64,000 nt of DNA from a virus: positions 296,644-360,643 of IMG/VR virus record IMGVR_UViG_3300045988_174371; one strand, written 5' to 3'. This document shows positions 36,950 to 60,865 of the stretch, in pieces. The translations under genes were made by a program, and so were the position numbers. The notes beneath the pieces are model-generated. The model was given only the letters and a program-made list of their open reading frames with translations, made no database searches and was not told the origin of the DNA. How positions within the stretch are numbered: position 1 is the stretch's first letter; every line of letters begins with the position of its first letter.

Positions 36950-36993
36950 TATTTTAAGAGCTATGCAAGCGATATGTTTGTGGCGCAAAGAAA

Positions 36994-37031
36994 CCCCCTG
37001 CTTGCAACGACTAACAGTTGCAAGCAGGGGG
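36994..37031 (-). terminator. hairpin ccccctgcttgcaac/gttgcaagcaggggg
   Basis: 15-bp stem 17 nt after the stop at 37048. Confidence 0.65.
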
Positions 37032-37047
37032 TAATACTCAAGCCCTA

Positions 37048-38217
37048 TTAGCTATCCATTTCCAAGGAAGCCCAGAACCTCTCCTTGGAAAGTTCAACAT
37101 CTCCAAAGGAGCTGAAATCTTCCAACCCACAGAACTCGGTAATACGGCTACAAATAGACTCAGGACTCAATCGCGCCCTATCCCACGAAATAGCTGTCAC
37201 ATAGTCACCAGTAAGCATGTATGTGCCACCGAACGTGCGCTCAGTACGTTCAGCAACAAGCCTACGCAAACCATCCTCAATTTGGCGCACAGAAAGGAAC
37301 CTATACGCAGTTGGGATAGCCGACCTAAGACCAGCCTGCCACAAGAAGTAGACAATAGCCAGCGGGTCACCACCAATAAGGAACGGGTAATACAGTCCAC
37401 ACCGACAACCATCCTCAAGATGCACACTAGGCGCAATGCAGAACTCTTGAATATGCGCCCCAGTAGCCAGTAGCGATGCGGAGCGAATCAAAGTCCGCGC
37501 AATGTTGCTAGATAGCAAATCATCAATGCGCTTACCCGCAGTACCCACCCTCAGCTCCTCATCTGACATGGACAGAAACGCAGAGGGCACATACCAGACT
37601 TCACCCGAAGTTCCTACGGTAGCAGGCTTAACACCGCCACCAAACACGCTATCTCCAGCCCGGAAATAATCCGCCGGGTCATCAATCTTAAACGAGCCTT
37701 CCCCTACAAAGGTTGCCCTGAGGAGTGAGAAATTGCCAGAGAGCGTGAACTCGCTCTTTGGGCTGACCTTACAGGAGTCAAGCTGAACATCCCCAAAGGT
37801 ACTAAGGCTCGAATTGTCCATCAAGGTCACCTTGTGCGCATCCCCACCAAAGCCGCTATAGGTAGCGCCACTATGCAGTGTCAGCGATTCAACATTCGAG
37901 TTATGTAGTGTTAGCTTCACACCGTCATGCACGGTCACACCTGAGGCGTTACTATTTTTCAGGTCGAGGGTGATTCCTGAACCTTCTGCTGTGGCATCAG
38001 AGACAATCTGGACACCATCAACGCTACTATCTTCAATATGCACATCAACTGCCCCCTGAAAATTGCCAGGCTGAGAAACCTTATCCAAAGAGCTGTTGAT
38101 GATTTCTCCTGAGCAGTGAAGCTGAACATCGTCACCAAACGAACAGCCACTCACCACCACATCTCCAGTTAGCAGATTACCGTCATGTAGCCCACTCGGT
38201 TTTTCATGCGTAGCCAT
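37048..38217 (-). CDS. family-B protein: beta-helix-like repeats plus C-terminal C-H-C-C domain
   Basis: ATG at 38217 after GAAAGG. Repeats such as VSGCSFGDDVQLHCSGEIINSSL. C-terminal FCIAPSVHLEDGCRCGLYYPFLIGGDPLAIVYFLWQAG. Confidence 0.8.
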   Translation of the reverse strand: MATHEKPSGLHDGNLLTGDVVVSGCSFGDDVQLHCSGEIINSSLDKVSQPGNFQGAVDVHIEDSSVDGVQIVSDATAEGSGITLDLKNSNASGVTVHDGVKLTLHNSNVESLTLHSGATYSGFGGDAHKVTLMDNSSLSTFGDVQLDSCKVSPKSEFTLSGNFSLLRATFVGEGSFKIDDPADYFRAGDSVFGGGVKPATVGTSGEVWYVPSAFLSMSDEELRVGTAGKRIDDLLSSNIARTLIRSASLLATGAHIQEFCIAPSVHLEDGCRCGLYYPFLIGGDPLAIVYFLWQAGLRSAIPTAYRFLSVRQIEDGLRRLVAERTERTFGGTYMLTGDYVTAISWDRARLSPESICSRITEFCGLEDFSSFGDVELSKERFWASLEMDS

Positions 38218-38236
38218 AAACACCTTTCAGTAGCGA

Positions 38237-39796
38237 TTAGTCCTCAGAGCCCAGGAACCCCTTGTCGGGTGCACTGAGATACTGGGCGGGAGTGGAATCC
38301 GTGAGAGAGCCAGCGAATCGCTCAAAATCACTCACGCCGCAGAACTCGAAGATGCGCTCCCTCACGGAGGTGAAGTTACACTCATCCGTCCAGTAAAGCT
38401 CAGTGAGACTCCATAGGTCGTAAATGTTCGATGCGCTCAAAATGGCTTCCTTCACCATATGGGTAAGCTCAGCGTCGCTGTAGGCGTTATGTTCATCCGA
38501 CGCAGAGCTTGACATACCGGCGGCTCGCAAGAAGTACAGGATGCCCACTGAATGACCAGCAAGTAGCAGGGGGTACGCAAGACCGCAGACACAGCCACTA
38601 TTGGCGTGAATATCGGGCGCAACACAGAACTTGTGTACCGTTGCGCCAACACTCAACAAACGCGCGCTGAGACGGTACGCGTCGTTGGCGGTCTGGCGGA
38701 TAATCTCACCCTGCTCAGCGGAGGTTAGAGATTCCCCTGGATGGTGCTTGAGGATGCGCGAAAGGGTGTAGGGGATACGGGCTTGGGTGTTGATGGTCAT
38801 TACCTTACCCTCTGCCTTACCCCACCATGCGGCAACCAAATCGTCTAGGCACATGCTGTGGTGAACATCTAGCGACATTGCGCCTACAAAGCTACTTGCA
38901 CTAATGGAGAGCTTGCCTCGAATGTCGAAAGTGCCAGAATTAAACACGGACTTGAAGATAGCTACCGACCCATCAACCTTAACCGAAGCGCCATTGCGGA
39001 CATATGCCGTATCAATGCTAGGCTTAGTGCCCTTCGCTTCCAGCTTGCCACCCTGCAAGTATAGGTGGTTGATTTTAGTATTCTCGCAAACGAGGGCATT
39101 GGGTAGCTCATGAGAAGACGCGCCCAGGTAGCAAAGCTTACTGTTACGCGCATCCAGCGTACTGAAATGCTCTAGTGTGTAGCTATTCCGCACGTCAGTG
39201 TTCTGGACAGTAATCTCCTGCTTGCCCATTGCGGGTGAGCTCTGGAATCCAGACCCGTTCAATCGAGAGTTCTTGAAGTGCCCGCTGTAGAGGTTAATGC
39301 CGTAGTCCATCTTTACAGTGGACGGGTCTACCACAGCGTTACCTGCAATGACGTTGCCACCAAGAAGATTGTGAGCCTTCTTCGCAGGGACGATAAGCAC
39401 ATCCTCCACACCATCAATGGGTGAAAAGGAATCCAACAGAGTAGGTACGTTTACCTGAACGTCCTCAATGAGAGTGGGGGCATCTTCTTGCAAGGTTCGC
39501 TCAACGCCTGCAACAATATCCCTCTCCCACTTGCGCAAAGGCTGGGTAGCATCGTTCAGGTGGTTATTCCAGCCGCGATACAGCACATACTGGAACTTGT
39601 TACCATGTTCGCGGATAAACTCATGCATATTAGAGGGGAAAGCGTTACGCACCTTAGCTGGGTGGGTTCGCCAAAGAAGCTCGCCGTCGGGGGATAGGCG
39701 GGGCGTAGGTAGTCGCGTATCGAGGTTTACGCCGTCGGTCTTGTAGAGTAGGTAGAAGCGCTCCTTGGGCTCCTGCCAAATGTTCTTGTGGGTCAT
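38237..39796 (-). CDS. family-B protein
   Basis: FCVAPDIHANSGCVCGLAYPLLLAGHSVGILYFLRAAG. N-terminal LLGGNVIAGNAVVDPSTV repeats. Confidence 0.8.
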   Translation of the reverse strand: MTHKNIWQEPKERFYLLYKTDGVNLDTRLPTPRLSPDGELLWRTHPAKVRNAFPSNMHEFIREHGNKFQYVLYRGWNNHLNDATQPLRKWERDIVAGVERTLQEDAPTLIEDVQVNVPTLLDSFSPIDGVEDVLIVPAKKAHNLLGGNVIAGNAVVDPSTVKMDYGINLYSGHFKNSRLNGSGFQSSPAMGKQEITVQNTDVRNSYTLEHFSTLDARNSKLCYLGASSHELPNALVCENTKINHLYLQGGKLEAKGTKPSIDTAYVRNGASVKVDGSVAIFKSVFNSGTFDIRGKLSISASSFVGAMSLDVHHSMCLDDLVAAWWGKAEGKVMTINTQARIPYTLSRILKHHPGESLTSAEQGEIIRQTANDAYRLSARLLSVGATVHKFCVAPDIHANSGCVCGLAYPLLLAGHSVGILYFLRAAGMSSSASDEHNAYSDAELTHMVKEAILSASNIYDLWSLTELYWTDECNFTSVRERIFEFCGVSDFERFAGSLTDSTPAQYLSAPDKGFLGSED

Positions 39797-39819
39797 GATT
39801 TACTTTCTCTTAGGGTGCG

Positions 39820-39865
39820 GGGTGGGGCGCTCCGCCGTATTGGTATCGGTCAGAGCGCCCCACCC
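39820..39865 (-). terminator. hairpin gggtggggcgctc/gagcgccccaccc
   Basis: 13-bp stem between the stop at 39883 and the start at 39796. Confidence 0.55.
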
Positions 39866-39882
39866 TCAACTATAGGTTGTGC

Positions 39883-41424
39883 TTAGCGGATGCCCAGAAG
39901 GTCAGCCGGGGCAACATGGTACTTGGAGGCAATGTGCTCGTTCCATGCTTCGTGGTCGTAGATGTCGTTTCGCTCCTGCCAGATGGTGTAGTGTGCGGCG
40001 CTTCCACCACGTGCAAGGCGGCTACCAAGCTCGGCGGTCTCATGGTTGAGAACCTGTTCCAGCTCAACCCAGCTCTTGCCCTTGTGCTCCTCTGGGATGT
40101 GGTTCTCCAGCCCGTTTGCCTTGAGGTAGTAGGTTACCGCAAGCGGGTTGCCGAACAGTAGCACGGGATAGTAGAGTGCGCAGAGGCAATTGTCTCGCTT
40201 GTGAACCTTCGGCAAGGCACAGAATCGCTCCATCTTAAAGCCGCCCTCAATCATCTTACTGCTGGTGATAAGGGTGCTGTCTGCGCTTTCCGTGAAGTCC
40301 ACATTCTCCACCTTACCGTGGTTCTTCCGTACTCGGTACTCGAACTTCGGCTTGAGCAGGAGAGGAAGCAGGTAGAAGCCGGTAAGGTCAGACATAGGGG
40401 TATGTGATTCTAGTGCTTTGAGGTCGAACCAGCCACCAAAGTTGCTGTCCTTAATGTGTGCATCACCGCTAATGGAGATGTCGCCGCCACTGAAGAATAC
40501 CTTGTCTAGTAGAACATTTCCACTGAGGTTTAGGTTGGCTCCCATGCGAACATGGACGTTGGTCAGCTCGCCGCCAGTAACAGAAATATTCGGAGAATCT
40601 GCCTTGCGGTGAACGCCAGTAAATTCACTGTGACTAACGGTGGTGTCGCGCAGGGTAAGGTTCAGTTCGCCAGTGGTGAAGACACCCTCGATGGTGCTGT
40701 CTTCTACTAGGGTGTTGCCAGTCAGTTCCGCCGTGTGGTAGATGCCGCTATTGCGAACGGTGGTGTCACCTGCAATGATGATGCGACTTTCGCCCTCGTG
40801 TGAAGAGTGAGTCAGCTTATGACCCTCAGTGGGCATATGCTCCTTGGTGATAAGACCACTTTCGACATTCGCGGAGCCAGAGATACGACACTCTGCATCT
40901 CGCATGTCCACATGGCGAGGGTCTACAGTTGCGTAGTCGAAAATGTGATTACCACCCAGAAGGTTCTCAGCACATTCCGGGAGTGCGTACACGCTATCGT
41001 ACTTGTAGAGCACGCTCTGCATCTCACCGAAGATGGTTGGGATGTTGAGCTCGGGGAACTGGATGAAAGTCTTCTTCGGCTGACTCTTATCCATCTCAAT
41101 CTTGCCAGTCTCGCGGTTGAAGACTCCTGAGGTGCTGTAAAGTACGGAGCTGTAAGGAACCTTCCTACTGCCGAAGGGGTCGTTCTCACCCCAATTGTTC
41201 GACTTCGGGTATTTGAAAGCACTGTACCACTTCTCCCAAAGAGCTCCGTTAAGGGGGACGCGCCACACGCTATCGAGGGTTCGCTGGTTTCGAGTGGTCT
41301 TCTTGGGGAGAGAGACGCTATTGGAGTCATGTACCCAGATGGGGACGGTGGTTGCAGGGGTGATGTATTCAGGGGTGTTGAGGTGCTTGAGAAGCACACT
41401 GACATTCTGTGGCTTGTCGGTCAT
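39883..41424 (-). CDS. family-B protein
   Basis: ATG at 41424 (MTDKPQNV) after GAAAGG and the promoter at 41461. FCALPKVHKRDNCLCALYYPVLLFGNPLAVTYYLKANG. Confidence 0.8.
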   Translation of the reverse strand: MTDKPQNVSVLLKHLNTPEYITPATTVPIWVHDSNSVSLPKKTTRNQRTLDSVWRVPLNGALWEKWYSAFKYPKSNNWGENDPFGSRKVPYSSVLYSTSGVFNRETGKIEMDKSQPKKTFIQFPELNIPTIFGEMQSVLYKYDSVYALPECAENLLGGNHIFDYATVDPRHVDMRDAECRISGSANVESGLITKEHMPTEGHKLTHSSHEGESRIIIAGDTTVRNSGIYHTAELTGNTLVEDSTIEGVFTTGELNLTLRDTTVSHSEFTGVHRKADSPNISVTGGELTNVHVRMGANLNLSGNVLLDKVFFSGGDISISGDAHIKDSNFGGWFDLKALESHTPMSDLTGFYLLPLLLKPKFEYRVRKNHGKVENVDFTESADSTLITSSKMIEGGFKMERFCALPKVHKRDNCLCALYYPVLLFGNPLAVTYYLKANGLENHIPEEHKGKSWVELEQVLNHETAELGSRLARGGSAAHYTIWQERNDIYDHEAWNEHIASKYHVAPADLLGIR

Positions 41425-41460
41425 GATGGTTGCCTTTCTATAGCTAAAATATCTACAAAA

Positions 41461-41471
41461 AGTGTACCACA
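41461..41471 (-). promoter_or_regulatory. extended -10 promoter TGTGGTACACT
   Basis: Consensus copy 37 nt upstream of the ATG at 41424. Confidence 0.55.
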
Positions 41472-41541
41472 TAATCTGTGGGTATTGCAATGCCCCGACA
41501 CGCGAAGGGAAAACGCTTGCCAGGGGCATTGCTTTCAGTGG

Positions 41542-42537
41542 TTATGGCGTGGGGTCTTGCCCGGTCAGTCTCCTGTAGTGAGCCAGCCAACTCTCAGGTA
41601 GTTGTCTAATATACTTCTCCCACGTCAGATGGTCTTCCGGCTTGAAGTCTTCCTTAACCATATGGAATACCTCAGATGAGCTAATGTATACCGGCTGTAT
41701 ATGCTGAGTGAACTCAAGAATGATGTTATTGACCCACTTCAAAGGCTCCCCCTCCCTCCGATATTCAGCATGGTAAACACCCCAGGGGTGAAGCTCCCTA
41801 TTCCGGGATGCCAACTCGTTGTACGGGGACTCAATGAGTGACCTCACCTTCCCTGCAAGCGCATTCTCTAGCATTGTCCAGCTGAGCGTGCTGAGCGGGT
41901 TGCGGACAGTCCCATCTAGTGCTGGATAGTCTGAATTGCGAATACCTGACTGAATAAGTCCCTCTACTCTGAAGAGGTAATGTAGGGCTACAGGATTACC
42001 TGTAAGCATTAGAGGGTACCAAAGGAGACAATGGCAGTGCGGGTTTACTTGCAGGTGGGTGGAAGCCTTGAGACACATGGTGGAGTCGCGCCAGGCAGGG
42101 TGCTTAATGAGCCCATAGGTAGCTACGGCAGTACGCAGTATTCCCGCGCTTGGAGACACGAAGCTACTGTCACTCACCGTGTCTGGGTATTCAGGATGCG
42201 GCATGATGTCATAGAAGGCGTAGCGCAGGGATTCGCAATCCCCAGCCTCAGTGTCAATAACGGCAGAAAGCGCCATAGGCGGCTCTAAGTCATTAGGTAC
42301 ATCAATTAGCACGCCTCCATCAAGTGAGACTTTCTGGAGGCGTATAGAGCCTCTTACGGTGGCGTTGCCACGCATCTTTAGACGGTAACTCCACGAGTTG
42401 CCAGCAATAACAGTATCATCACCAGCGTCTAGGTAGTGATGCTGTCCACCCAATATTTGCGCGTTCCCCTTGAGTGACTTGAGCCCAGACAGCTCAACTT
42501 TCTCACCAATAATAACGCCTGACGCTTCGCCCTGCAT
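41542..42537 (-). CDS. family-B protein (short repeat region)
   Basis: MCLKASTHLQVNPHCHCLLWYPLMLTGNPVALHYLFRVEG. GGAAGGAG RBS. Confidence 0.8.
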   Translation of the reverse strand: MQGEASGVIIGEKVELSGLKSLKGNAQILGGQHHYLDAGDDTVIAGNSWSYRLKMRGNATVRGSIRLQKVSLDGGVLIDVPNDLEPPMALSAVIDTEAGDCESLRYAFYDIMPHPEYPDTVSDSSFVSPSAGILRTAVATYGLIKHPAWRDSTMCLKASTHLQVNPHCHCLLWYPLMLTGNPVALHYLFRVEGLIQSGIRNSDYPALDGTVRNPLSTLSWTMLENALAGKVRSLIESPYNELASRNRELHPWGVYHAEYRREGEPLKWVNNIILEFTQHIQPVYISSSEVFHMVKEDFKPEDHLTWEKYIRQLPESWLAHYRRLTGQDPTP

Positions 42538-42552
42538 AGCTAAAACTCCTTC

Positions 42553-43269
42553 CTAATTGGGTGTGGCGATATTTAGGCACAAGTCAGTCTGACCAGTCAC
42601 CCGGCACCAATGGTTATACCAGATAGTGCGAGATAGCGGGACAGGGATATTGTCATCTCGCGGGATGTAGGACTTAATCTCGCTCTCCCACTTGCGGTAG
42701 TTCAGCTTCGCAAAGCCGCCACGATACTCAGGAAGATAGCTCTTGGCATCAGCATAGCCGTCAGTGAATACTTCAACGATTCGCTGACGCATACTCTCCT
42801 CCAGAACAGATAGGGATAGTATTGAGTATGGGTTTCGCGGCGACTTTTCCAGGTGAATAGTAGGCGCTTTACCTAGAGGCTGTAGAAGCCCCTCTGCGCG
42901 GAAGAAGTAGTGCATTGCAATAGGGTTCCCCATGAGGTACAGCGGATACCAGAGAAGGCAACGGCAGGTATGCATTGTCCCACGATGCTTCTCATAGTCC
43001 AGGCACCACGTGCCAGTCATGGCGGCAGAATCTTCCAACACCTGCATGGTTAGTTTAGCCATTGCAAACAAACTGTCCCGACGAAAAGATTTCCCGTCGT
43101 TAAAGAACTTCTTTGTCTTCAGATTCGGCTTCGTTTCGCGCATATTATAGACAAGACTAGCACCGCCCACATTAAGCATGAGTGGTGTTTCTCGTTCAGG
43201 AATGATGATGCGGGCTTCTTTCCCCAGCTTAGCGCTATTGATGGTCACGCTATCTGTACTATAGTTCAT
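42553..43269 (-). CDS. family-B protein (mainly the C-terminal domain)
   Basis: WCLDYEKHRGTMHTCRCLLWYPLYLMGNPIAMHYFFRAEG. AGGAGAG RBS. Confidence 0.8.
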   Translation of the reverse strand: MNYSTDSVTINSAKLGKEARIIIPERETPLMLNVGGASLVYNMRETKPNLKTKKFFNDGKSFRRDSLFAMAKLTMQVLEDSAAMTGTWCLDYEKHRGTMHTCRCLLWYPLYLMGNPIAMHYFFRAEGLLQPLGKAPTIHLEKSPRNPYSILSLSVLEESMRQRIVEVFTDGYADAKSYLPEYRGGFAKLNYRKWESEIKSYIPRDDNIPVPLSRTIWYNHWCRVTGQTDLCLNIATPN

Positions 43270-43298
43270 GATTCTCTCCTAAATAAGTAAGTAAAATC

Positions 43299-43309
43299 AG
43301 TGTACCACA
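43299..43309 (-). promoter_or_regulatory. extended -10 promoter TGTGGTACACT
   Basis: Consensus copy 30 nt upstream of the ATG at 43269. Confidence 0.55.
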
Positions 43310-43338
43310 CAAAATAGCTACTATGTAGTTCCAGTGCA

Positions 43339-44202
43339 TCACCTCCCCATGTACGGGGTTCCTAGAGCCCGCTCAAGGAAGCAATGCCAGTCGCTCAGCT
43401 GATACTCTTTGCTGGTCTCTTCCTTACTAAAAAGCTCTTCGATGCCGTGGCTAGAACAGTTTGCTTGAAGGATTTTGCGGGGTGCCAGCCAGTAGTCCTT
43501 GAGAATCTTGTCCAGTGATACGCGCATCAGTTTTTCAAGGCGGGTGGCGCTAAATGCGTAGTAGGGATTACGGAGGGTGCCTTCGGCATAGATGCTTCGA
43601 TGCGTATCACCGTGCGGCTTGAGTCTCCCCTCTGCGCGTAGGAAGTAAAATGTGGCGGCAGGGTCGCCTAGGAGGATAAGCGGGAGCCAGAGGGCGCAAC
43701 GACAGCGCGGCATATTCTGCGAGTGAACTTCACCGTTGAGACAGAAGCGAATATTGACATACTCGGGGTGCTTATCCATGAGGTTTGCGGCGAATGTAGC
43801 TACCGACTGGAATGTCTGATTGGTGATAGCCGTATCTTCGGTGATGAGTCGAGAGATGTCAGTCATGATGGGGGTGTTCCAGTAGCTATTGATGCTTACT
43901 GTCTCCGGCAGGGCGTTGAAGTCGTGGAGCTCAAATTTTCCGCCGTATTCGCCGCCAATGATATGGAAATTACCCTTCACGGTAGCGTTGCCGGTAAAGG
44001 TTGCAGTAAGGTCGGTTTCTCGGCAGGCGACATGGGCATTGTCAGATGCTCGCAGTATGTAGTGCGTTCCACCTTCAACGTATGCGTTATCGCGAACCTC
44101 GCAGGCGGTTAGTTCCGCGTCGTGGACACGGGCGTTGTCGCTGATGCGGTTCATGTCGCCATGAAGGACGCTGTTTCCGGTCACGTTATCGACATTTTTC
44201 AC
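43339..44202 (-). CDS. family-B protein
   Basis: GTG start after AGGAAG. FCLNGEVHSQNMPRCRCALWLPLILLGDPAATFYFLRAEG. N-terminal NA.V..... repeats. Confidence 0.8.
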   Translation of the reverse strand: MKNVDNVTGNSVLHGDMNRISDNARVHDAELTACEVRDNAYVEGGTHYILRASDNAHVACRETDLTATFTGNATVKGNFHIIGGEYGGKFELHDFNALPETVSINSYWNTPIMTDISRLITEDTAITNQTFQSVATFAANLMDKHPEYVNIRFCLNGEVHSQNMPRCRCALWLPLILLGDPAATFYFLRAEGRLKPHGDTHRSIYAEGTLRNPYYAFSATRLEKLMRVSLDKILKDYWLAPRKILQANCSSHGIEELFSKEETSKEYQLSDWHCFLERALGTPYMGR

Positions 44203-44250
44203 GGGTTTCTTCCTGAGTGTGAGTAGTGCATGATTTTCATTAAGATTTAG

Positions 44251-44318
44251 GGGTAAAACCGTACCAATTTAAGGGTTTTCACTTAGTGTTTTGCCTTAAA
44301 TTGGTACGGTTTTAGGGG
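44251..44318 (-). terminator. long (~22 bp) hairpin ggtaaaaccgtaccaatttaagg/ccttaaattggtacggttttagg
   Basis: Inverted repeat 13 nt after the MoxR stop (44331). Confidence 0.65.
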
Positions 44319-44330
44319 TGATGGTGGCGG

Positions 44331-45896
44331 CTACATTTCGTTGTTGCCTACCGCGAAGAGCGCGGGGTAGAGTCGGGCACTTAGAGCACCTGCAATGGTT
44401 AGCGGGTTGTGCTCCAAAGACTCAAGGTGGCTATCCAACTTTTCCTGCTGGCTACTAGTGGTAGGATGCAGGTTAATCGACTTAGGCAGACCCAGCTCTT
44501 CAGTAGAGAACGCCTTCAGTAGACCCTCGCTGTGGCTCTTGGAGAGCATCTTGTGAGGAACCATAACCATAGGGTCATCCACACCACCGCCCGTAATGTC
44601 GGTACGGTTAGTGATGCTGTTGATAAGGTACTCCAGGACTGCGTGTAGCGGCGCGCGGAACACGCGGTTGCAATACGGCGACTCTTCATCCACTAACTCC
44701 GAAATAAGGTTCGTCACATTGACGATACCTTCCAGCAGGCGCGCCTTAGCTTCCTCATCAGGGGCAGTATCGGACTTCTCTGGGAGGAAGTCATCAATAT
44801 AGGTGTTTAGGCGCTCTGCAAGGCGGGAGGCATTGTCCTGGTCGTTCTCTGCGGTAGTTCGAGAGACCTTCTCAGGGTTCTCGAAAATTTCCGTAAGCGA
44901 CATGGTTGCAATGGCAGAACCGCCGCCGGTAAGGGAGTCCGCATAGTTCTTGAGTGCGTCAGCAAAGGCGTTGTATCCGTCAAAGCCGATGGTCATCTGG
45001 GTAAAGTGAATCGCCAGGTCGTAGAACTTCTTCGGTTCTTCGGTGGGAAGCGAAGCAAGAAGGTCTGCGAGGTTTTCCCAGCTTCGCGGGGAGCGCCATG
45101 CGTAAGTTGCCGCGTCACGGCAGTTCTCATCCATGCTCTCTGCGAAGCGTTCAATGCGGGCATCACGGTTCATCTCATACAGGGTTCTGTCAGTGCGCTT
45201 GTCGAGATAGGTCGCAATCATCTCTCGGATGCGGCGCTCGTTATCAGTCATAGGCTTACCCCAGGCGACCTTGAAGCCTTCCAGCCAGTCACCAATCGGC
45301 TGGTGGACAGGAATCCAGGTGACGCGGTTCTGCGTGGGCGGCGCAATGGGAGTGGGGTTCACGGAACTAGCCATTGAGTTAGTTGCCAAGACGATAACCG
45401 TCTCAGTAGGGATGGGGGTGCCATCAGGGAAGCGGCGCTCGTTAAAGATGTACAGCATAGCCGCCTGAACGCTCTCGTTCGAGTTGCTGTATTCATCCAG
45501 CAGGAGAATGACCTTGCGGTGCTTGAGGATGCGTACCTGGAACGGTTCGTTGAGGTAGGTCGTAGACGGAACCTCGGTGAAGTTACCTTCTTCGTCAATG
45601 ATGGTGGTAGAGCCTACGGAAGGGATACCCCCGATGGATTCAGGGGAAAGCTGAGCGCCAACAAGCACTTCTACGCTGTGGTAACCCATTTCGTCCTTGA
45701 GGGCGTGGATGGATGCGGTCTTGCCGATGCCGGGGCTACCGATGAGTCCGATAGATTTGCCGGGCTTCAGCTCACCGTTTGCGCCCATATGGGGGAATGC
45801 GCCGTACTTCACTAGTTCCATTGCGGTACTCAGAGATACGGGGGTGACGTTAATTGCGCCGGTGGGCTTTTCGTCTGTCATTACTGCATTAGACAT
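44331..45896 (-). CDS. MoxR-type AAA+ ATPase
   Basis: Walker A GSPGIGKT, Walker B VILLLDEY. GAAGGAG RBS. Immediately downstream of a VWA gene. Confidence 0.9.
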   Translation of the reverse strand: MSNAVMTDEKPTGAINVTPVSLSTAMELVKYGAFPHMGANGELKPGKSIGLIGSPGIGKTASIHALKDEMGYHSVEVLVGAQLSPESIGGIPSVGSTTIIDEEGNFTEVPSTTYLNEPFQVRILKHRKVILLLDEYSNSNESVQAAMLYIFNERRFPDGTPIPTETVIVLATNSMASSVNPTPIAPPTQNRVTWIPVHQPIGDWLEGFKVAWGKPMTDNERRIREMIATYLDKRTDRTLYEMNRDARIERFAESMDENCRDAATYAWRSPRSWENLADLLASLPTEEPKKFYDLAIHFTQMTIGFDGYNAFADALKNYADSLTGGGSAIATMSLTEIFENPEKVSRTTAENDQDNASRLAERLNTYIDDFLPEKSDTAPDEEAKARLLEGIVNVTNLISELVDEESPYCNRVFRAPLHAVLEYLINSITNRTDITGGGVDDPMVMVPHKMLSKSHSEGLLKAFSTEELGLPKSINLHPTTSSQQEKLDSHLESLEHNPLTIAGALSARLYPALFAVGNNEM

Positions 45897-45935
45897 GGTG
45901 GTTAGTCTCCTTCTTAGGTGGTGTAGAGATGTTGC

Positions 45936-47723
45936 TTAGTGTGCAACTCGGATGATGGTTGGTTTGTAGTTTGCTGGTAGCGACTTGAAATATTCATGCA
46001 TATGCAGGATGTCCTTGTCGCTATGCTTGGAGGTTAGAACGATAGCCAGCCCGTAGTTATGCTTGCACTTAAGGGCGTTGGCTACGTTCTGCCAGTCGAT
46101 GTATCCGTCGGTAATGAGGATGCCCAGTGCGGCGGGAGGGTTCTTCTTCTCTCGGCTCGTCTCATACTCGTTGAGAGCGTTGATGAAAGGAGTCATGGCG
46201 GTACCGCCGCCACCCTTAAACACCACGTCAGATAGTTTCTTCACCGGCTGGAAATCGCCTAGAACAGTGTCAATAGCGCTAATGCGTAGGTCTGCTCGGT
46301 TCTTGAAACTATCAATAATGCGCTCAATATTACCTAGCACACGCCCACTATCTTCCCTGGTATGCATGGAGCCAGAGGTATCCACTCCAATGTACACGGT
46401 CGGCTTGACTGCATAACGAGTTGGAAGTAGCACTCGCTTATCTGGCAGGGCGGCGTTTAGTCGGTTGAACCTACGGAAGGTGCGGTGAGTACTGCCGGTG
46501 GTTCGGTGAGAAGACGCAATAGTGAGAACCTTCTTGAGCTGTGTAGACCATACGACATAGTTGCCTGCGTCAATCTTGAGCACCCAGTTAAGAATGTTGT
46601 CCAGGTGGGTGTTGCCGATAGACTTACGCATCTGCTCTGCACGTACTAGGGCGAGCATGTCGTTACGGCTTTCACGTTTGATAAGCTCGTCAGCCGCCTG
46701 GATACCCAGCGCGTCCATGAGGCTCTGAAGCATTTCAGCAGTAACAAACTGGTCGGTCATCTCGGTAAACTTCCCCTGCTGGGTATTGCTCTCGGGGGAA
46801 CCTGCTTCGCCGGGGGTGCCACCATTGCCGCCAGAAGCTCCCTTATCGCTGTCACTAGTGCTATTGCCCTGCTGGTCACCATTGCTGGGATTTGCGCCGC
46901 TATTGGAGCCGCTGGTGTCGCTATCAGAGTTACCACTGGAGGTATCGCTGGAGCCGGTATCCTCATTATTGGTATTAGAGGTGCCGTCACCTTCTTCACT
47001 GTTCTTATCGTCGCTACCGCCATCATTACTGAGGCTTGAGCGCTGAGAGGCACCATTATTCGATTTAACATCAGAGCTATTATCCCCCTGCGGTTCGCCG
47101 GTAGGCGAAGCAGACTCATTGCTCTGCGGCTTACTTTCAGCAGAGCCGCTACCTCCACCAGAGCCTTGCTGTCCTAGGGCTTCTGCGTCATCCCTAAGCG
47201 CGTTGTGGAACTCCTCTGCGATGCCGCTGGCGGGGAGGTTGTAGTCTGCGGGAACAAAGTCAATGCCGGGAGTGAGGCGGAAGCGACCGGAGATGCCACT
47301 GATGCGCTGGTTAATTTCAAGGTCGAATGCCAGGCGGGTAATCTCGTCATCTTTGTAGCCTCGGGTAGCAACGCGCTTATCCTGTAGGATGATGATTCGC
47401 AAAATTTCACGGAGCGCCACCTTGAGGGTTTCCGCGTTGCGATAGGTGTCTAGAGAGCCCTCAGGGAGGCTGATGCGCCAGTCCTTGTCGATGCTTGCCT
47501 GCTTGGAGTTGATGATTGCAGGGCGCACCTGTCGAATGATGGGTGCAAAGTATGGTGAGATGCTTGTCAGCTCGTCCGTGAGGTGAATGAACACGTCAAG
47601 CTCTTTAGGGGTGAGCTTACGTAGCATGATGGGCACTTTCTTAGGGCTATTTGCCGGTAGCCCAGTAATGCTGTTTACAGCGGGCGCGCCGGGCGGCGGT
47701 GCCATCTGAATAATAGGGAGCAT
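45936..47723 (-). CDS. VWA-domain protein with MIDAS motif, N-terminal DUF2201-like (putative metallopeptidase-like) region and an S/G/D/N-rich linker
   Basis: ATG at 47723 (MLPIIQMAPPPG) 8 nt after AAGGAGGGG. YIGVDTSGSMH (DxSxS). Linker of about 130 aa. Confidence 0.85.
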   Translation of the reverse strand: MLPIIQMAPPPGAPAVNSITGLPANSPKKVPIMLRKLTPKELDVFIHLTDELTSISPYFAPIIRQVRPAIINSKQASIDKDWRISLPEGSLDTYRNAETLKVALREILRIIILQDKRVATRGYKDDEITRLAFDLEINQRISGISGRFRLTPGIDFVPADYNLPASGIAEEFHNALRDDAEALGQQGSGGGSGSAESKPQSNESASPTGEPQGDNSSDVKSNNGASQRSSLSNDGGSDDKNSEEGDGTSNTNNEDTGSSDTSSGNSDSDTSGSNSGANPSNGDQQGNSTSDSDKGASGGNGGTPGEAGSPESNTQQGKFTEMTDQFVTAEMLQSLMDALGIQAADELIKRESRNDMLALVRAEQMRKSIGNTHLDNILNWVLKIDAGNYVVWSTQLKKVLTIASSHRTTGSTHRTFRRFNRLNAALPDKRVLLPTRYAVKPTVYIGVDTSGSMHTREDSGRVLGNIERIIDSFKNRADLRISAIDTVLGDFQPVKKLSDVVFKGGGGTAMTPFINALNEYETSREKKNPPAALGILITDGYIDWQNVANALKCKHNYGLAIVLTSKHSDKDILHMHEYFKSLPANYKPTIIRVAH

Positions 47724-47752
47724 ACAGCAACCCCTCCTTTCTTTCAAAGAAT

Positions 47753-47763
47753 AGTGTATCACA
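47753..47763 (-). promoter_or_regulatory. extended -10 promoter TGTGATACACT
   Basis: 30 nt upstream of the ATG at 47723. Confidence 0.55.
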
Positions 47764-47816
47764 TATATTGCAGGCTAACAAGAACCTGCAACATTTTCTC
47801 CACAATAAGAGAAAAC

Positions 47817-47865
47817 ACCTGAGGTGCATGTTGGTCATAGCCTTAACCAACATGCACCTCAGGTG
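47817..47865 (-). terminator. 19-bp hairpin cacctgaggtgcatgttgg/ccaacatgcacctcaggtg
   Basis: 15 nt after the stop at 47880. Confidence 0.65.
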
Positions 47866-47879
47866 TTGAGCGCTAATCG

Positions 47880-48143
47880 TTATTCGCCGCTGAAGCCACA
47901 GTCCGAAGAGCCAGAATCCGACGAAGAGTAAGAAGAAGAGGAGCAAGAATCGCTGTAGCTACTGCTCGAAGAATAGCTATCTGAACTGCTACTCGTAGAG
48001 TAGTCGTAACCGCTGTCTACGTCGCGTGCGTCGTCAAAAACAGTAGAGTTGCTAGTGCTTGACGAAGTGCCTACACCCGCCGATGCGCTCGAACGACGCA
48101 GGGATTCCTTCTTCTTTGCGCGAAGCTTGCCAAAAGAAAACAT
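47880..48143 (-). CDS. hypothetical Ser/Asp/Tyr-rich low-complexity protein
   Basis: ORF-track ORF. Basic N-terminus, then STSSSSDSYSSSSSYSDSCSSSSYSSSDSGSSDCGFSGE. Confidence 0.5.
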   Translation of the reverse strand: MFSFGKLRAKKKESLRRSSASAGVGTSSSTSNSTVFDDARDVDSGYDYSTSSSSDSYSSSSSYSDSCSSSSYSSSDSGSSDCGFSGE

Positions 48144-48165
48144 GTAAGGTCCTAACTAGGTATAC

Positions 48166-48528
48166 CTACGGTGAGGTAGTGTTCAAATCTTCGTACAGCA
48201 GAAACCCGCAATACCTAGAGTAGGTCACCCCAAGGCTACGGCTCTCCGTGTAGGGAATCGATTGAGATACCCGATGCCCAACACTCTTATATCTTACCTT
48301 CCCAGGCGCAGGGTAGGCAACCCAGCTCTCCTTCTTACTCCTAGAGTTCTTACGCATAATGTGCGCCACTGGCTTAGGTGGCTCTACTGACCTATTAACC
48401 ACTGTATAGATTTTCGGGTTGCCGGTAGTCATTAGCGCTGTGTTAGTTTCGTAGTTCGTGGCGACCGCCTGCCATTCAGACGCACCCATAACAATATGGT
48501 CTACATCCTCAGCTTTCATAGTACCCAT
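48166..48528 (-). CDS. hypothetical protein
   Basis: ORF-track ORF. Confidence 0.6.
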   Translation of the reverse strand: MGTMKAEDVDHIVMGASEWQAVATNYETNTALMTTGNPKIYTVVNRSVEPPKPVAHIMRKNSRSKKESWVAYPAPGKVRYKSVGHRVSQSIPYTESRSLGVTYSRYCGFLLYEDLNTTSP

Positions 48529-48536
48529 AACAGCCC

Positions 48537-48986
48537 CTAACGCCTATTACCAGTAGCGATAAGGTTATATGCCTGCAACATGCAGTCCTTACCGCCATCT
48601 TGAGCCTCTGCAATAGAGGCGAACATGGCAACTTTCATGCCGCGCTGGTGTGCTTCTCGCGCGAAGTTAGCCGCACCTACTCCTACAGATACCGCAAGGG
48701 ATAGCCCGCTATCCTGCAACTCTGCCAATACCGACGGGTGGGGGATGGCAACAATCGTATCTGGCAAACCAGGTTCCATAGGCATAACCGTAAATAGAGA
48801 GGGGGCTTTACTGTGCATGGCTGAGGATAGTTCCTCAATGGTGGTTGCATGACGGAATGGCTCCAGTATGGGCTCTGTGCGATGCAGGTCATACTGTGAG
48901 GCACTAATGAAGAACGGTAAGTAGCTGTCCTCCAGGCGGTATGTCTGGACGGGTGTCCAGTTCGGGTTGTTTTCAAAACGGGGCAT
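48537..48986 (-). CDS. hypothetical protein
   Basis: ATG at 48986 (MPRFENNPNW) downstream of the stop at 48998. The longer ORF-track start overlaps the upstream gene. Confidence 0.6.
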   Translation of the reverse strand: MPRFENNPNWTPVQTYRLEDSYLPFFISASQYDLHRTEPILEPFRHATTIEELSSAMHSKAPSLFTVMPMEPGLPDTIVAIPHPSVLAELQDSGLSLAVSVGVGAANFAREAHQRGMKVAMFASIAEAQDGGKDCMLQAYNLIATGNRR

Positions 48987-48997
48987 GGGTCGTACCT

Positions 48998-50170
48998 TTA
49001 TGCATGGTCTGGTTTGATGTTGGTAAGTCGAAGAATCTTGTTCACCCATTCCTCTTTGCTGGCGGGAATGTCGTGAAGGGATGAATGTTCTTCCCATGTT
49101 TTGCGAAGCTCAGCTTTGAGGGCGACTTCAAGCTGAGGAATCGTTAGGAAGTTGTAGGGGTGCCCTGCGGGAAGTTTAGAGACCCTGCTTCCCGATAGCG
49201 CCATATACTGCACCGCCGCCGGAGTCCCCATGATGTAGAGCGGGAAATAGAGTGCACAGCGGCAGGGACGGCGATGGCGGGTGGAATCGAGGCAGAACTC
49301 CCATTCTCCTGTGCTCCAACCCAATGCCTCACAGCTTATCTCTAGAAGATGCTGAATGGAACTGGGTTGAATTAGGGTTTCACCGTTCAGGTGGTTGATA
49401 AAGTCGGAAACGTAGTATGCATCATCAACACAGACTTTCGTCTCATCGCTTGAGGCGACTTCATGCAGGGCATTGAAGTTCCCGCTCATGAAAACGTCGC
49501 CTTCAAGGGTGACGTTTCTTAGCATTGCGAAATGCACAGAGATATTTCCTCCCAAGTGGCACCCTGCAAGATATGAATCATCTCCAACGTATATGTCTCC
49601 GCCATGTAGCGTAGTATTACTGACGGTTGCGTAGCCAATGTCTACCTTACCACTGGTGAACACGCCGCCTTCAATTAGTGCGCCATCATGTACGTGCGTG
49701 TCATCACGAAGGATGCACTCAGGGGTTCCCTCGTTGCCGCTATCTGTATGAGTGATAGCGCGTGGCGGTTTGAATGACCTTGGGGACTCAATACAGCTTC
49801 GGTCAAGCACTAGCACCGTGGGCGACTGCCAGCCAGTAGAGGTTATTTCTACAGTTTCGCTTACTTCCGCTTCCCCTTCCTGAATTTTTCCAGGTTCCTT
49901 AGGGTGTGTCGCGTCTGCTTCATCCATTGTTAGCCAAGGTGCCTGCCATTCAGGGTCACTGTATAGGGCGCAATGAATTTTCTTTGCGCGCTTACCTGTG
50001 CGCTTATCCAGCTGTTCGTGGGTCAGATAGGTGAGGTTTACCTTTTTGTCTGCTAGAGCGTACAGTTCTTCCTTAATCCTGTCGCCGGGGAAAGTGTAGG
50101 TGTTGAGGATATGTCGGGCGGTTGCCACCGTATATGTGGTTTTCTGCTCGATACTGGGGGTGAACGCCAT
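48998..50170 (-). CDS. family-B protein
   Basis: AAGGAG RBS. FCLDSTRHRRPCRCALYFPLYIMGTPAAVQYMALSG. Repeats such as GDIYVGDDSYLAGCHLGGNISVHF. Confidence 0.8.
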   Translation of the reverse strand: MAFTPSIEQKTTYTVATARHILNTYTFPGDRIKEELYALADKKVNLTYLTHEQLDKRTGKRAKKIHCALYSDPEWQAPWLTMDEADATHPKEPGKIQEGEAEVSETVEITSTGWQSPTVLVLDRSCIESPRSFKPPRAITHTDSGNEGTPECILRDDTHVHDGALIEGGVFTSGKVDIGYATVSNTTLHGGDIYVGDDSYLAGCHLGGNISVHFAMLRNVTLEGDVFMSGNFNALHEVASSDETKVCVDDAYYVSDFINHLNGETLIQPSSIQHLLEISCEALGWSTGEWEFCLDSTRHRRPCRCALYFPLYIMGTPAAVQYMALSGSRVSKLPAGHPYNFLTIPQLEVALKAELRKTWEEHSSLHDIPASKEEWVNKILRLTNIKPDHA

Positions 50171-50432
50171 GATGATACTCCTTGTAGGGCGCTAGGTTAG
50201 GTGCCTAGTTCGTGGACGGTTAGGATAGCTAATGTGGCGATAATAATGAATGCTACGTAGTGGTGGTGGCGGTGGTGTTTGCTTTCTGAATGGGGCTCTT
50301 CTCGGGTGTACCTATTGTTAAGCATGTATTTACCTTCTTGGTGTTGGGTTAGTGCGAGCCGCCCCTCAGCCCCCGTCTTTAATGATGTAGGGGTTGAGGG
50401 GCGGCTCATGTAGAGTATTTGGTTCTTGTGTG

Positions 50433-50506
50433 TACGCCGTGTGGGGATTGAACCCACGACCTAGGGATTATGAGTCCCTTGCTCTAACCTGCTGAGCTAA
50501 CGGCGC
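50433..50506 (-). tRNA. tRNA-Met (anticodon CAT; initiator / elongator / Ile2 not resolved)
   Basis: GCGCCGT..., anticodon loop CTCATAA, T-loop GGTTCAATCC, G1-U72 first pair. Confidence 0.8.
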
Positions 50507-50528
50507 ATATGCGGCGGAGTGTCCGTCA

Positions 50529-50547
50529 CATGTACCACTTTACCACA
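50529..50547 (-). promoter_or_regulatory. two overlapping extended -10 motifs (TGTGGTAAAGT, TGGTACATG)
   Basis: 20-40 nt upstream of the tRNA-Met 5' end. Confidence 0.45.
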
Positions 50548-50572
50548 TATCGACTGGCGGCGCAAAACGCAC

Positions 50573-51094
50573 TTACTGGTGGGTGTAGTAGGCGCTCTGG
50601 GTTACGGGCTCATCAGAGGCATACAGAGGGTTTTCCGTGTAGGTGCCTGCCGAAATGGTGATGTCGCGGATGTCGCGGTATGTGCCGCTAACCATAGCGC
50701 CGCCCGTAATGTGCGTGTAGCCGCCTAGCGAACTGTTGCCGCCGGTCTGACTGTACCCATACTGCTGAGCCTCACCAGTCAGAGTGGAGCTTCCTCGGTG
50801 AACTGCATATTCATATAGCATTGCGTTGCCGGTAACAAGGGCGTTTACCATGCATACAGCATTGTCGAATACCTTACCTTCGCCTGCTACCCAAGCATTA
50901 TTTCCCTGCGTAAGGTTGTGTTCAGATTCAATCCATCCGCCTAGCTGACCTGCAATGACATTATGCTCGGGAATGTCGCGGGTCGCCTTGATGCGGTGTA
51001 CGGTAACTTCCCGTCCTTGCCAGCGGGGGTGGGGGAAAGTCGCCGTCTTATCGGTGAGTACGTACTTGCGGTTCTTATTGAAAGTATTGCTCAT
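50573..51094 (-). CDS. hexapeptide/bactofilin-like beta-helix repeat protein (no C-H-C-C domain)
   Basis: ATG at 51094 (MSNTFNKNRKY) downstream of the promoter at 51148. NNAWVAGEGKVFDNAVCMVNALVTGNAMLYEYAV repeats. Confidence 0.65.
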   Translation of the reverse strand: MSNTFNKNRKYVLTDKTATFPHPRWQGREVTVHRIKATRDIPEHNVIAGQLGGWIESEHNLTQGNNAWVAGEGKVFDNAVCMVNALVTGNAMLYEYAVHRGSSTLTGEAQQYGYSQTGGNSSLGGYTHITGGAMVSGTYRDIRDITISAGTYTENPLYASDEPVTQSAYYTHQ

Positions 51095-57850: not shown

Positions 57851-57963
57851 CGCACATACACCGCCGCAACCCAGCTAGGCATTGGTAATGTCCTTTTATT
57901 TCAACCACCTCTCCCGTTTCTCACAGGCGAGGTGAGCACACACCCTATAGAGTGTGCGTTGCG
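57851..57963 (-). repeat. tRNA-trailer structured element, copy L (truncated)
   Basis: Starts right after tRNA-Leu(CAA): CGCAAC, H1 GCACAC..GTGTGC, H2 CACCTCGCCTGTGAGAAACGGGAGAGGTG, GAAATAAAAGG. Confidence 0.7.
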
Positions 57964-58043
57964 TGCGCCCGGTGGGACTCGAACCCACACTCCGAAGAAC
58001 CTGATTTTGAGTCAGGCGCGTCTGCCAATTCCGCCACAAGCGC
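57964..58043 (-). tRNA. tRNA-Leu (anticodon CAA), class II
   Basis: GCGCTTG..., anticodon loop CTCAAAA, long variable arm. Confidence 0.85.
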
Positions 58044-58111
58044 TAGGTTGAGGGGAAGGAGTGTAAGCCCCATACGAGAAGCCCTGTGCGCTCCCCTCAA
58101 CGTATAAAACA

Positions 58112-58122
58112 ATCGTACCACA
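58112..58122 (-). promoter_or_regulatory. extended -10 promoter TGTGGTACGAT followed by the hairpin at 58048-58100
   Basis: Promoter-then-hairpin-then-tRNA arrangement. Confidence 0.45.
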
Positions 58123-58183
58123 CAGTCTACGAATTTAAAAGCTCAGACGAGTGAGTGCCCTGTGATGCTCATCCCGCCCAGCT

Positions 58184-58679
58184 TTAATCCTTGTTCACCA
58201 TGAAGATTTTTCCGGTATTGCGCGGAGCCTCAATGATGATAGGCATGTAGTATACGCCTGACTCTGCATCGTAGGCGAAACGCCCGCCTTCAAATAGTGC
58301 GCCGCCAATGGTGAACTCATCACCATTACCTGTGAACGTACCGTCCTGCACGATAGACATGAACGCCGCACCCACCGAATTAACATCAGAAGAAAGCGAC
58401 TCCACCATCCTCACAAAAACGTCCTTAAATGCAGGAACAAGCGACACAAACGGGGCAGAGCCAACCTCACCCAACGGCTCCCCAAAACCAAACCCCAACT
58501 CAAGACCAACCCCACCATCAACACTCCACTGCAACCACCCCCGGCTCCCTCACAAAATGCCCAGTATCCACCAAATCAATATTACCCAAATCCTCCACAG
58601 GCGACACCACCGGCGAAACACCCACAGGAACAGGCGCAGAAGAAGCAGAAGCAGAGCCACGACCAGCAGAACCACGCAT
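58184..58679 (-). CDS. hypothetical protein, apparently split by a +1 frame change at a G5 run (58538-58542)
   Basis: MRGSAGRGSAS...VREPG (frame 1) continues as WLQWSVDGGVGLELG...MVNKD (ORF 58184..58534) if one G is removed. Confidence 0.4.
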
Positions 58680-58804
58680 AAACGACAACAACAAAACCTC
58701 CAAATAAAGAAAACCCCCACCACAAGCAACCAACAAAGGCAACAAGTAGCAGGGGAAAGGTAAAGCAAAAAAGAGCCTAGACAACCAAGCCAAGGGAAGG
58801 CATA

Positions 58805-59083
58805 AAAGGTAGCGCCTAGCAGAGCCCCCCACGTGTCCAGGGAAGGTGCTTCCCGGCTAGGGTAAACACCCCGAATACACATGAAGCGCCTTCGGTTTCC
58901 CACGCAGTTAGGCAAGTCAAAGGCTCTCTCTGCTGGCAACCAGCCAGCCAGCAGATGCCAGCCTTCATAGTCTTTACACCGCCGCCACTCAACCGAGCTT
59001 TAGCAATGTCCGTTTAGTTTAGAAACCTCTCCCAGTCTATCACAGGCGAGGCTGGTAACGCACCCCCAAAGGGGTGTGCTACG
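58805..59083 (-). repeat. tRNA-trailer structured element, copy B
   Basis: Follows tRNA-Arg(CCT): CGTAGC, H1 GCACACCCC..GGGGGTGCG, H2 AGCCTCGCCTGTGATAGACTGGGAGAGGTT. The tail shares AAGGCGCTTCAT and GGGTGTTTACCCTAG with copy A. Confidence 0.7.
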
Positions 59084-60065: not shown

Positions 60066-60069
60066 GCAA

Positions 60070-60293: not shown

Positions 60294-60338
60294 CTAGCGC
60301 CGAGTAACACAGAATAAATGAACCTATCCTACGTTACG

Positions 60339-60863: not shown

Positions 60864-60865
60864 GG

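Follow-up and report, generated by a model that had tools for sequence, protein, structure and literature searches.

In characterised pairs of a MoxR-type AAA+ ATPase and a VWA-domain protein, the general mechanism is that the metal ion-dependent adhesion site (MIDAS) of the VWA protein takes hold of the client by an acidic residue or peptide, after which the ATPase ring remodels the client (PMC7159879). Bacterial MoxR-vWA pairs also form ternary conflict systems, in which VMAP, iSTAND, FtsH or beta-propeller proteins serve as third partners (PMC7159879). Among viruses, the MoxR protein p618 of Acidianus two-tailed virus (ATV) binds the VWA protein p892 and three virion proteins and is implicated in tail building (PMC4124505), and peptidase-fused MoxR-vWA pairs occur in jumbo phages, for which Aravind's group proposed a chaperone role in virion assembly (Iyer et al., 2021, PMC7824862). 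The clients of these widespread pairs are known in few cases and in phages are essentially unknown. Here we describe a locus within a 64,000-nucleotide stretch of DNA, hereafter the window, taken from the IMG/VR virus record IMGVR_UViG_3300045988_174371 (positions 296,644 to 360,643 of that record), in which an ATPase-VWA pair stands beside seven paralogous genes that share a C-terminal Cys-His-Cys-Cys (CHCC) domain. The pair is a diverged representative of a known type, and the general logic of a MoxR-VWA pair with a partner is established, whereas the CHCC domain, its fusion to a solenoid and the tandem amplification behind the pair are, as far as we found, absent from the libraries and literature searched. 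The original prediction, made from the letters of this stretch, had called the arrangement undescribed, which holds for the third component and for the tandem amplification, but not for the remainder, because MoxR-vWA pairs of jumbo phages, ternary systems and a viral pair with multiple partners have all been published.

Results

Seven genes share a C-terminal domain with invariant Cys and His residues

Seven open reading frames (ORFs) on the minus strand of the window, designated g1 to g7, were aligned over a common C-terminal domain in which the residues C, H, C, C, L, P, G and Y are invariant, and all seven contain the pattern C-x5-H-x(3-6)-C-x-C of candidate ligands together with the Tyr. 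The original prediction had proposed both the shared domain and a motif with fixed Cys/His spacing, and the alignment matches the pattern as it was given; the proposed gene starts likewise agree with the gene calls of related contigs (389-391, 513 and 287 aa). We scanned every window ORF with 60 or more codons with a profile built from homologues elsewhere, which matched exactly these seven ORFs (E values of 1e-26 to 1e-32) and no others. Pairwise BLASTP comparisons among the seven members gave E values of 1e-6 to 1e-22.

An exhaustive HMMER profile search of 1.84 billion cluster representatives returned 51 proteins at E <= 1e-3, one of which is a false positive, which indicates that the family is small. 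The pattern C-x(4-6)-H-x(3-8)-C-x-C is kept in 55 of the 55 retrieved sequences that span the motif, and the Cys, His and Tyr positions are invariant in all full-length members. Across alignments of 47-58 members, which have a mean column identity of 12-19%, invariance is limited to the columns of the three Cys, the His and a single Tyr. The loop between the His and the CxC ranges from 3 to 8 residues across the family and the ligand residues are fixed, a combination that is typical of a chelating loop. The N-terminal regions fall largely into one BLAST cluster (46 of 51) and are thus mutually related, which indicates that the members are whole-gene paralogues and not products of domain shuffling.

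The original prediction could not assign the domain to any family known to it, and this view is borne out by searches of Pfam, NCBIfam, PHROGs and PADLOC, which yielded no match to the domain, as well as by comparisons with PDB and BFVD. A profile search of PDB sequences with the domain gave a best E value of 1. Using Foldseek with AlphaFold models (two against PDB and one against BFVD), we obtained nothing below E = 0.24; for the Cys-His-Cys-Cys core, the best E values were 2.9 against PDB and 1.4 against BFVD. PADLOC likewise returned no match for any of all ten proteins. Nucleotide searches with the 13-kb block and tblastn searches with g4 gave no match in 50,697 phage records. A scan of GTDB with a profile of the linked ATPase, which covered 185,579 species genomes of bacteria and archaea, found no relative and no family member, and hence no prophage or host clue. 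Among the sequences retrieved, the family is confined to one clade of uncultivated phages. A role as a DNA mimic or in anti-restriction was considered and rejected, as the members have isoelectric points anywhere between 4.7 and 9.1 and do not form a uniformly acidic set.

Gene order beside the pair is kept in three lineages

Loci were retrieved by alignment of the ATPase, not by way of the family, and were then scanned with the family profile. The order of VWA gene, ATPase gene and array is kept in three lineages, which consist of phage contigs of 260-371 kb and have ATPases that are 97-100%, 52% and 46% identical to that of the window. Each locus with enough flank contains 6-10 or more members, the first of which begins 60-250 nt 3' of the ATPase gene, and one or two further members 3-8 kb upstream. 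Wherever a lineage has a recognisable pair, homologues of the domain co-localise with its MoxR and VWA genes. The adjacency of ATPase and member genes persists in the most distant lineage, although the flanking genes are otherwise not conserved there. Contigs of 262-307 kb contain DNA near-identical to that of the window; one of them is a viral contig from IMG/VR with a length of 306,861 bp. The sample labels of L003, L005, L035 and other records (FERR18, DAIW19 and VALL22, in SPIRE style), together with a preprint on circular jumbo phages of > 300 kb from the tongue dorsum (10.1101/2020.07.06.186817), hint that these phages may come from the human mouth.

The size of the array differs among lineages, with 6-7 members in two of them and approximately 15 in the third. 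One contig of the third lineage contains 13 complete members and the start of a fourteenth among 16 consecutive genes, and a composite of two overlapping strains contains approximately 15 members 3' of the ATPase gene. In a fourth, more distant lineage, represented by a 278-kb contig (L033), the ATPase homologue (6261-7679) keeps a Walker A motif (GASGIGKT) and has LYILKGFN in place of Walker B. We detected no VWA gene at this locus and only two members, which lie directly 3' of the ATPase homologue. Copy number appears to track the integrity of the pair among these four lineages, which are too few for statistics. Two paralogous genes for multi-pass membrane proteins lie in mid-array in the third lineage (L007 7298-9325 and L008 10993-13014); a homologue of these proteins lies near two members at a further locus (L005 6052-6939), and the window has no counterpart.

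Layout of the block and architecture of the members

Between 36.9 and 51.3 kb of the window, all coding is on the minus strand, to which all coordinates of the block below refer. In the direction of transcription, the block comprises a YdcK-like gene, a tRNA-Met gene (50432-50506), g7, a group of three small ORFs, the first of two hairpins (20-bp stem), the VWA gene, the ATPase gene, g6 through g1 and the second hairpin (16-bp stem). Gaps of 12-128 nt separate the packed genes that run from VWA to g1, and this part has the two strong hairpins at its ends. Both hairpins are unusually long and resemble terminators, with perfect stems and T-rich tails: the 20-bp hairpin (47817..47864) separates the VWA gene from the small genes upstream, and the 16-bp hairpin (36993..37032) directly follows the stop codon of g1, the last gene of the array. 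Six members (g6 to g1) are 3' of the VWA-ATPase pair, and g7 is 1.2 kb 5' of it. The family had been described as bracketing the pair, which is generous: there are members on both sides, six downstream and one upstream, but g7 is set apart by three small genes and the hairpin with the 20-bp stem.

The members range from 238 to 519 aa and have predicted solenoids of variable length. The longer members carry an additional N-terminal alpha/beta domain of approximately 150 residues, as represented in the AlphaFold model of g2 (38237..39796, 519 aa), where it spans about residues 11-160 and is followed by a predicted solenoid and the CHCC domain (38240-38776). The same three-part architecture is present in g3 (39883..41424, 513 aa; CHCC domain 39886-40371), and g7 (48998..50170, 390 aa) also has an N-terminal domain, a predicted solenoid and a CHCC domain (49001-49444) with the motif CLDSTRHRRPCRC. 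A long predicted beta-solenoid precedes the C-terminal CHCC domain of g1 (37048..38223, 391 aa, with a probable ATG start at 38217), which spans about 37051-37590 and has the motif CIAPSVHLEDGCRC. Short predicted solenoids are found in g4 (41542..42537, 331 aa), in which the CHCC domain has a long C-terminal tail (41545-42225), and in g6 (43339..44202, 287 aa), which has a GTG start and a CHCC domain at 43342-43893. The shortest member, g5 (42553..43269, 238 aa), consists of approximately 55 aa of short strands and then the CHCC domain (42556-43155), in agreement with its description as almost only the domain.

Two of the small ORFs upstream of the pair have counterparts in a second lineage. 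One of them, an ORF with an extremely high content of Ser, Asp and Tyr (47880-48143, 87 aa in the window), is conserved just 5' of the VWA gene in two lineages (87-98 aa; counterpart at L001 844-1140), and a conserved ORF of 120 aa (48166-48528) also precedes the VWA gene in the second lineage (L001 473-832).

The VWA-ATPase pair is a diverged one

The ATPase (44331..45896, 521 aa) belongs to the AAA_5 (MoxR/dynein-related) group, with a Pfam AAA_5 match of 28.6 bits (E 1.6e-6) that exceeds the 22-bit cut-off and a match to phrog_1297 (1.1e-22). Its translation contains the Walker A motif GSPGIGKT and the Walker B motif VILLLDEY, which are conserved in three lineages. The VWA gene (45936..47762, 608 aa) lies 39 nt 5' of the ATPase gene on the same strand, and the pairing also occurs in L001, L003 and L008. 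The VWA protein scored 25.9 bits against Pfam DUF2201 (E 1.2e-5), half a bit under the cut-off of 26.4, and precomputed DUF2201 matches exist for its orthologues; residues 79-557 match phrog_1314 (3e-16). It also contains a long Ser/Gly/Asp-rich linker and a complete MIDAS (VDTSGSM, GGGGTAM and ILITDGY), of which DTSGSM is kept in L001. Both had been anticipated from the motifs: the MoxR AAA+ ATPase stands on its Walker motifs and the above-threshold AAA_5 match, with a loose subfamily placement, and the VWA/MIDAS protein on its complete MIDAS, its match to phrog_1314 and a DUF2201 score just under the cut-off.

By eye only, the N-terminal region of the VWA protein resembles the DUF2201_N peptidase domain, which a Pfam scan did not detect in this protein. 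There is no HExxH anywhere in the protein, and the place at which it would be expected by eye reads REILR in the window and REALR in L001. The loss of the peptidase motif suggests that processing is unlikely and leaves capture and remodelling possible. Among the 50,697 phage records, the best matches to the ATPase were only approximately 25% identical and came from unrelated contexts, and the VWA protein had a single weak match; searches of PDB sequences with both proteins returned nothing specific.

Predicted solenoids precede a compact helical core

The hydrophobic autocorrelation of the N-terminal parts peaks at lags 6, 11 and 17 with values of 0.047-0.070 (shuffled sequences: standard deviation 0.010, maximum 0.041), which is the signature of a triangular beta-solenoid with approximately 17 residues per coil. 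These parts also gave weak Bactofilin, LbH and YdcK-repeat matches; Pfam Bactofilin (DUF583) matched 4 of 58 members with a best E value of 7.7e-4, and the solenoid of g3 is 26% identical to Escherichia coli YdcK over 191 aa (BLASTP E 3e-4). Taken together, these results support the proposal of beta-helix-like N-terminal repeats. An eighth beta-helix protein that lacks the domain had been proposed as well, and the gene at 50573..51094 is indeed a homologue of the YdcK N-terminus (33% identity to the E. coli protein, BLASTP E 4e-10; NCBIfam YdcK_fam 1.1e-10; phrog_5070 1.5e-24) without a CHCC domain. The scores fall short of the YdcK thresholds, with 41 bits for the eighth protein against a cut-off of 350, 14 bits for g3 and 14.2 bits for g6 against 30 (YdcK_fam / B_solenoid_ydck). 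The g3 solenoid and the eighth protein are thus, by these alignments, related to YdcK but not equivalogs of it.

We modelled g5 with AlphaFold2 from an alignment of 58 sequences, which gave a mean predicted local distance difference test score (pLDDT) of 76.5, with 10-residue blocks of 88-97 across residues 71-160. The predicted core begins with a helix, followed by a short strand that ends at the first Cys, a one-turn helix that ends at the His, the variable loop, the Cys-x-Cys that opens a helix, a G-x-P turn and a helix that bears the invariant Tyr; after the core comes a long helix, which a disordered linker joins to a terminal helix. The g2 model agrees with that of g5 for the CHCC domain, the core of which is predicted at pLDDT > 90, and its solenoid is poorly modelled (pLDDT < 50). 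The C-terminal domain is predicted to be mostly helical and to comprise approximately 130-200 residues, of which the conserved core makes up about 60 that are largely hydrophobic around the ligands. A span of 13-17 residues, which forms a small knuckle-like element, contains all four candidate ligands. We infer a structural zinc site because the four ligands are so closely spaced, are absolutely conserved and have a loop of variable length between them.

All members are under purifying selection

Compared with strains that have a 98%-identical ATPase, the members are 87-96% identical. The ratio of non-synonymous to synonymous substitution rates (ω) is 0.11-0.22 for all seven members (0.11-0.12 for g1), with no excess of non-synonymous change in the solenoid parts, which indicates that these are functional genes under constraint and not a hypervariable receptor set. 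The corresponding values are 0.07 for the ATPase and 0.16-0.18 for the VWA protein. A rapidly diversifying set of receptors or effectors engaged in an arms race was accordingly rejected, as ω stays within 0.11-0.22 in both gene halves.

Individual copies have been interrupted in related phages. TnpB genes (Cas12f1-like_TNB) are inserted within the arrays of L001 (6215-7822) and L003 (8482-10038), and the insertion in L003 splits the g2 orthologue into pieces of 390 and 151 aa. A g3-like member of L001 (12248-13848) is frameshifted, with the Cys-His-Cys-Cys motif in a second frame (13357-13848) 5' of a called gene of 108 aa; the g3-like orthologue is intact in other contigs (533 aa, P0019).

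The surrounding window

The window itself appears to come from a very large phage that is almost entirely uncharacterised. PHROG and Pfam scans of approximately 30 other ORFs gave essentially no matches and provided no structural or replication context. The sole scanned ORF outside the block with above-threshold Pfam matches encodes a protein of 902 aa with Adhesin_P1_N and DUF11 (Ig-like repeat) domains (5767-8475, minus strand). A second, unrelated paralogue family occupies 10396-20690 on the minus strand, with three intact genes (13016-15556, 15721-18117 and 18237-20690) that encode proteins of approximately 800-850 aa with 33-39% mutual identity. Two further ORFs (11784-12908 and 10396-11826) make up a fourth, split copy and are 35-47% identical to the intact genes. 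This family has no Pfam or PHROG match. The window also contains 25 tRNA genes between 8747 and 63675, all on the minus strand, of which 18 are packed into 57963-63675.

Discussion

The reading that we favour, which we hold tentatively and with somewhat less than even confidence, is that the family members are clients of a phage chaperone/co-chaperone pair and that their Cys and His residues form a structural metal site, probably for zinc. In its favour are the invariant C/H/C/C/Y residues with a loop of variable length between fixed ligands, the confidently predicted core, the gene order kept beside the pair, the low copy number in the lineage with a degenerate ATPase, the tight packing of the genes between two hairpins, the complete MIDAS, the purifying selection on all seven genes and the precedents in ATV and jumbo phages. 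The original prediction, which had read the Cys/His spacing as a sign of metal binding and the block as a diversified effector or receptor set serviced by one ATPase, is confirmed in what it observed and partly supported in its interpretation. The block would then represent a three-component system specific to jumbo phages, which consists of a VWA co-chaperone, a MoxR-like ATPase and tandem clients. A structural metal ion, most probably zinc, would be bound by the three Cys and the His and would fix the small core, and the CHCC domain would provide the common handle by which the VWA protein captures each paralogue. By analogy with characterised pairs, the MIDAS of the VWA protein would capture the client by an acidic residue or peptide, after which the ATPase ring would remodel, oligomerise or install the captured paralogue; the disordered linker predicted before the last helix of g5 is a segment that an AAA+ machine could grip. 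The variable solenoids would give each paralogue its own surface, and the end products may be structural appendages such as fibres, as in ATV, intracellular scaffolds or possibly factors directed at the host.

A special case of the client model is a set of virion fibres or receptor-binding proteins, in which the solenoids would be shafts or binding surfaces and the C-terminal part an anchoring or trimerisation module assembled by the pair. Beta-solenoids are common in phage fibres and spikes, and elsewhere in the window there are genes for an adhesin-like protein that has Ig-like repeats and for a second family of paralogues of approximately 800 aa. There is precedent for MoxR-VWA proteins in building an appendage in ATV (PMC4124505), and a role in virion assembly was proposed for the pairs of jumbo phages (PMC7824862). 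However, neither the seven members nor their neighbours match PHROG or Pfam families of tail fibres, spikes or baseplate-attachment proteins, with one weak sheath match (E 0.004) elsewhere in the window, and substitution proceeds at a moderate rate under purifying selection, with no hypervariable tips. In this family the conserved end is the C-terminal one, whereas anchors in virions mostly lie at the N-terminus. We therefore regard a fibre set as unlikely. The least probable of the explanations that we weighed is that the CHCC domain is a thiol-dependent catalytic domain, with a Cys/His dyad and the CxC, that is carried on a target-binding solenoid and acts on the host independently of the ATPase. 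Invariant Cys, His and Tyr residues would also fit catalysis, and the only structures with a beta-helix plus a C-terminal domain in the Foldseek list are the HECT-like proteins NleL (rank 5, E 0.44) and SopA (rank 34, E 3.2). These two matches were rejected as insignificant, with TM scores of 0.11-0.14. The core, moreover, has only about 60 residues that are mostly hydrophobic near the ligands, no peptidase, ligase or transferase family was matched and there is no sign of positive selection.

The pair could alternatively act as a metallochaperone and load the Cys3His site of each paralogue with a metal or cofactor. In that case the role of the site would be a functional one (redox or Fe-S, such as a 3Cys-1His cluster) and not merely structural. 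Several MoxR-VWA pairs act in the maturation of metal centres, and NorQ/NorD, CoxD/CoxE and the chelatase pairs serve partner enzymes. The invariance of three Cys and one His and the strict linkage to the pair are in keeping with such a role, as is the term 'MoxR-type metalloprotein chaperonin' that has been applied to a phage pair (PMC2147016). The spacing of the ligands within 13-17 residues looks instead like a structural zinc site that assembles by itself, and no other conserved polar residues point to an active site. Furthermore, Pfam and PHROG scans of the window ORFs detected no genes for cofactor biosynthesis nearby, and a scan of the profile library revealed no homology to CDGSH or other Fe-S families among the members, which together make metal insertion improbable, slightly more so than the absence of any functional link. 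Such an absence, which we likewise consider improbable, would mean that the family is a lineage-specific expansion that arose beside the pair by chance and was kept by descent. Because all loci stem from one clade of related phages, the synteny is partly a matter of shared ancestry, and the members of L005 have no ATPase nearby. Against chance stands the survival of the order through divergence to 46% ATPase identity, changes in array size from 2 to approximately 15 and insertions of mobile elements, along with an adjacency that persists in the most distant lineage despite unconserved flanks.

Several observations count against clients of a chaperone pair. The gene adjacency could be simply inherited, and the L005 locus has two members with no MoxR gene within 21 kb. 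The TnpB insertions that split or separate members indicate that individual copies are dispensable. The ATPase is placed in the MoxR group through AAA_5 only, as its scores for AAA_3 (14.7 bits) and bpMoxR (15.5 bits) each fall below the cut-off of 27. A docking peptide in the C-terminal helix, defined by the full acidic-aromatic-TG[IV] motif, was rejected because it is present in only 14 of 58 members. Hairpins as conserved operon boundaries were rejected as well: the second lineage has long hairpins at other positions, one of them inside the array, and the positions in the window are not conserved.

A stronger version of the client reading, which we consider rather doubtful, is that the CHCC domain is a new metal-binding fold and that its 7-15 or more tandem copies are obligate clients of a single VWA-MoxR machine that builds combinatorial structures, either appendages or scaffolds, with no counterpart in cultured phages. 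If true, this would constitute a phage-encoded system of 'one chaperone, many solenoids'. In genetic terms, the clade points with unusual clarity to a client family of phage MoxR-VWA chaperones, and a short invariant signature with four candidate metal ligands in a minimal member of 238 aa makes the family experimentally tractable. It also displays a large lineage-specific change in copy number (2, 7-8 and approximately 15) in otherwise dark jumbo phages of approximately 300 kb.

Comparison with known systems

The components of the block resemble described proteins to different degrees. The N-terminal parts share a coil period of 17 residues and a weak, consistent similarity with YdcK and bactofilin solenoids, which lack a Cys-His-Cys-Cys domain, and the members score far under the cut-offs of these families. 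Four close ligands (three Cys and one His) at the junction of a strand or loop with the N-terminus of a helix may resemble the HCCC sites of TAZ domains and Pfam zf-CHCC. The domain differs from helical or treble-clef-like zinc modules in that no sequence or fold match was found and the spacing C-x5-H-x(3-8)-C-x-C fits no matched family.

As a system, the block is similar to the pairs of jumbo phages in having an AAA_5/MoxR-like ATPase beside a DUF2201-type VWA protein with a peptidase-like N-terminus in a genome of > 200 kb (PMC7824862). The VWA protein of the window, in contrast, has REILR and no HExxH, the pair is very diverged (approximately 25% identity for the best ATPase match in the 50,697 phage records) and a tandem array of a novel family is not mentioned in that survey. 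ATV p618 and p892 likewise form a viral MoxR-VWA pair, which physically engages several other viral proteins in building a structure. ATV is an archaeal virus, and its partners p387, p653 and p800 are unrelated to each other and to the family in the window; it has neither a paralogue array nor a Cys/His domain. The likeness to the ternary conflict systems lies in a MoxR-vWA core with a dedicated third component that has a conserved C-terminal domain and a variable remainder, although the third component in the window is unrelated to theirs, with no VMAP, iSTAND or PADLOC match and a bpMoxR score below threshold for the ATPase. Their gene order is VMAP-MoxR-vWA, compared with VWA-MoxR-array in the window, and they serve cellular defence with one partner per system, whereas the locus described here combines one pair with 7-15 tandem paralogues in a phage.

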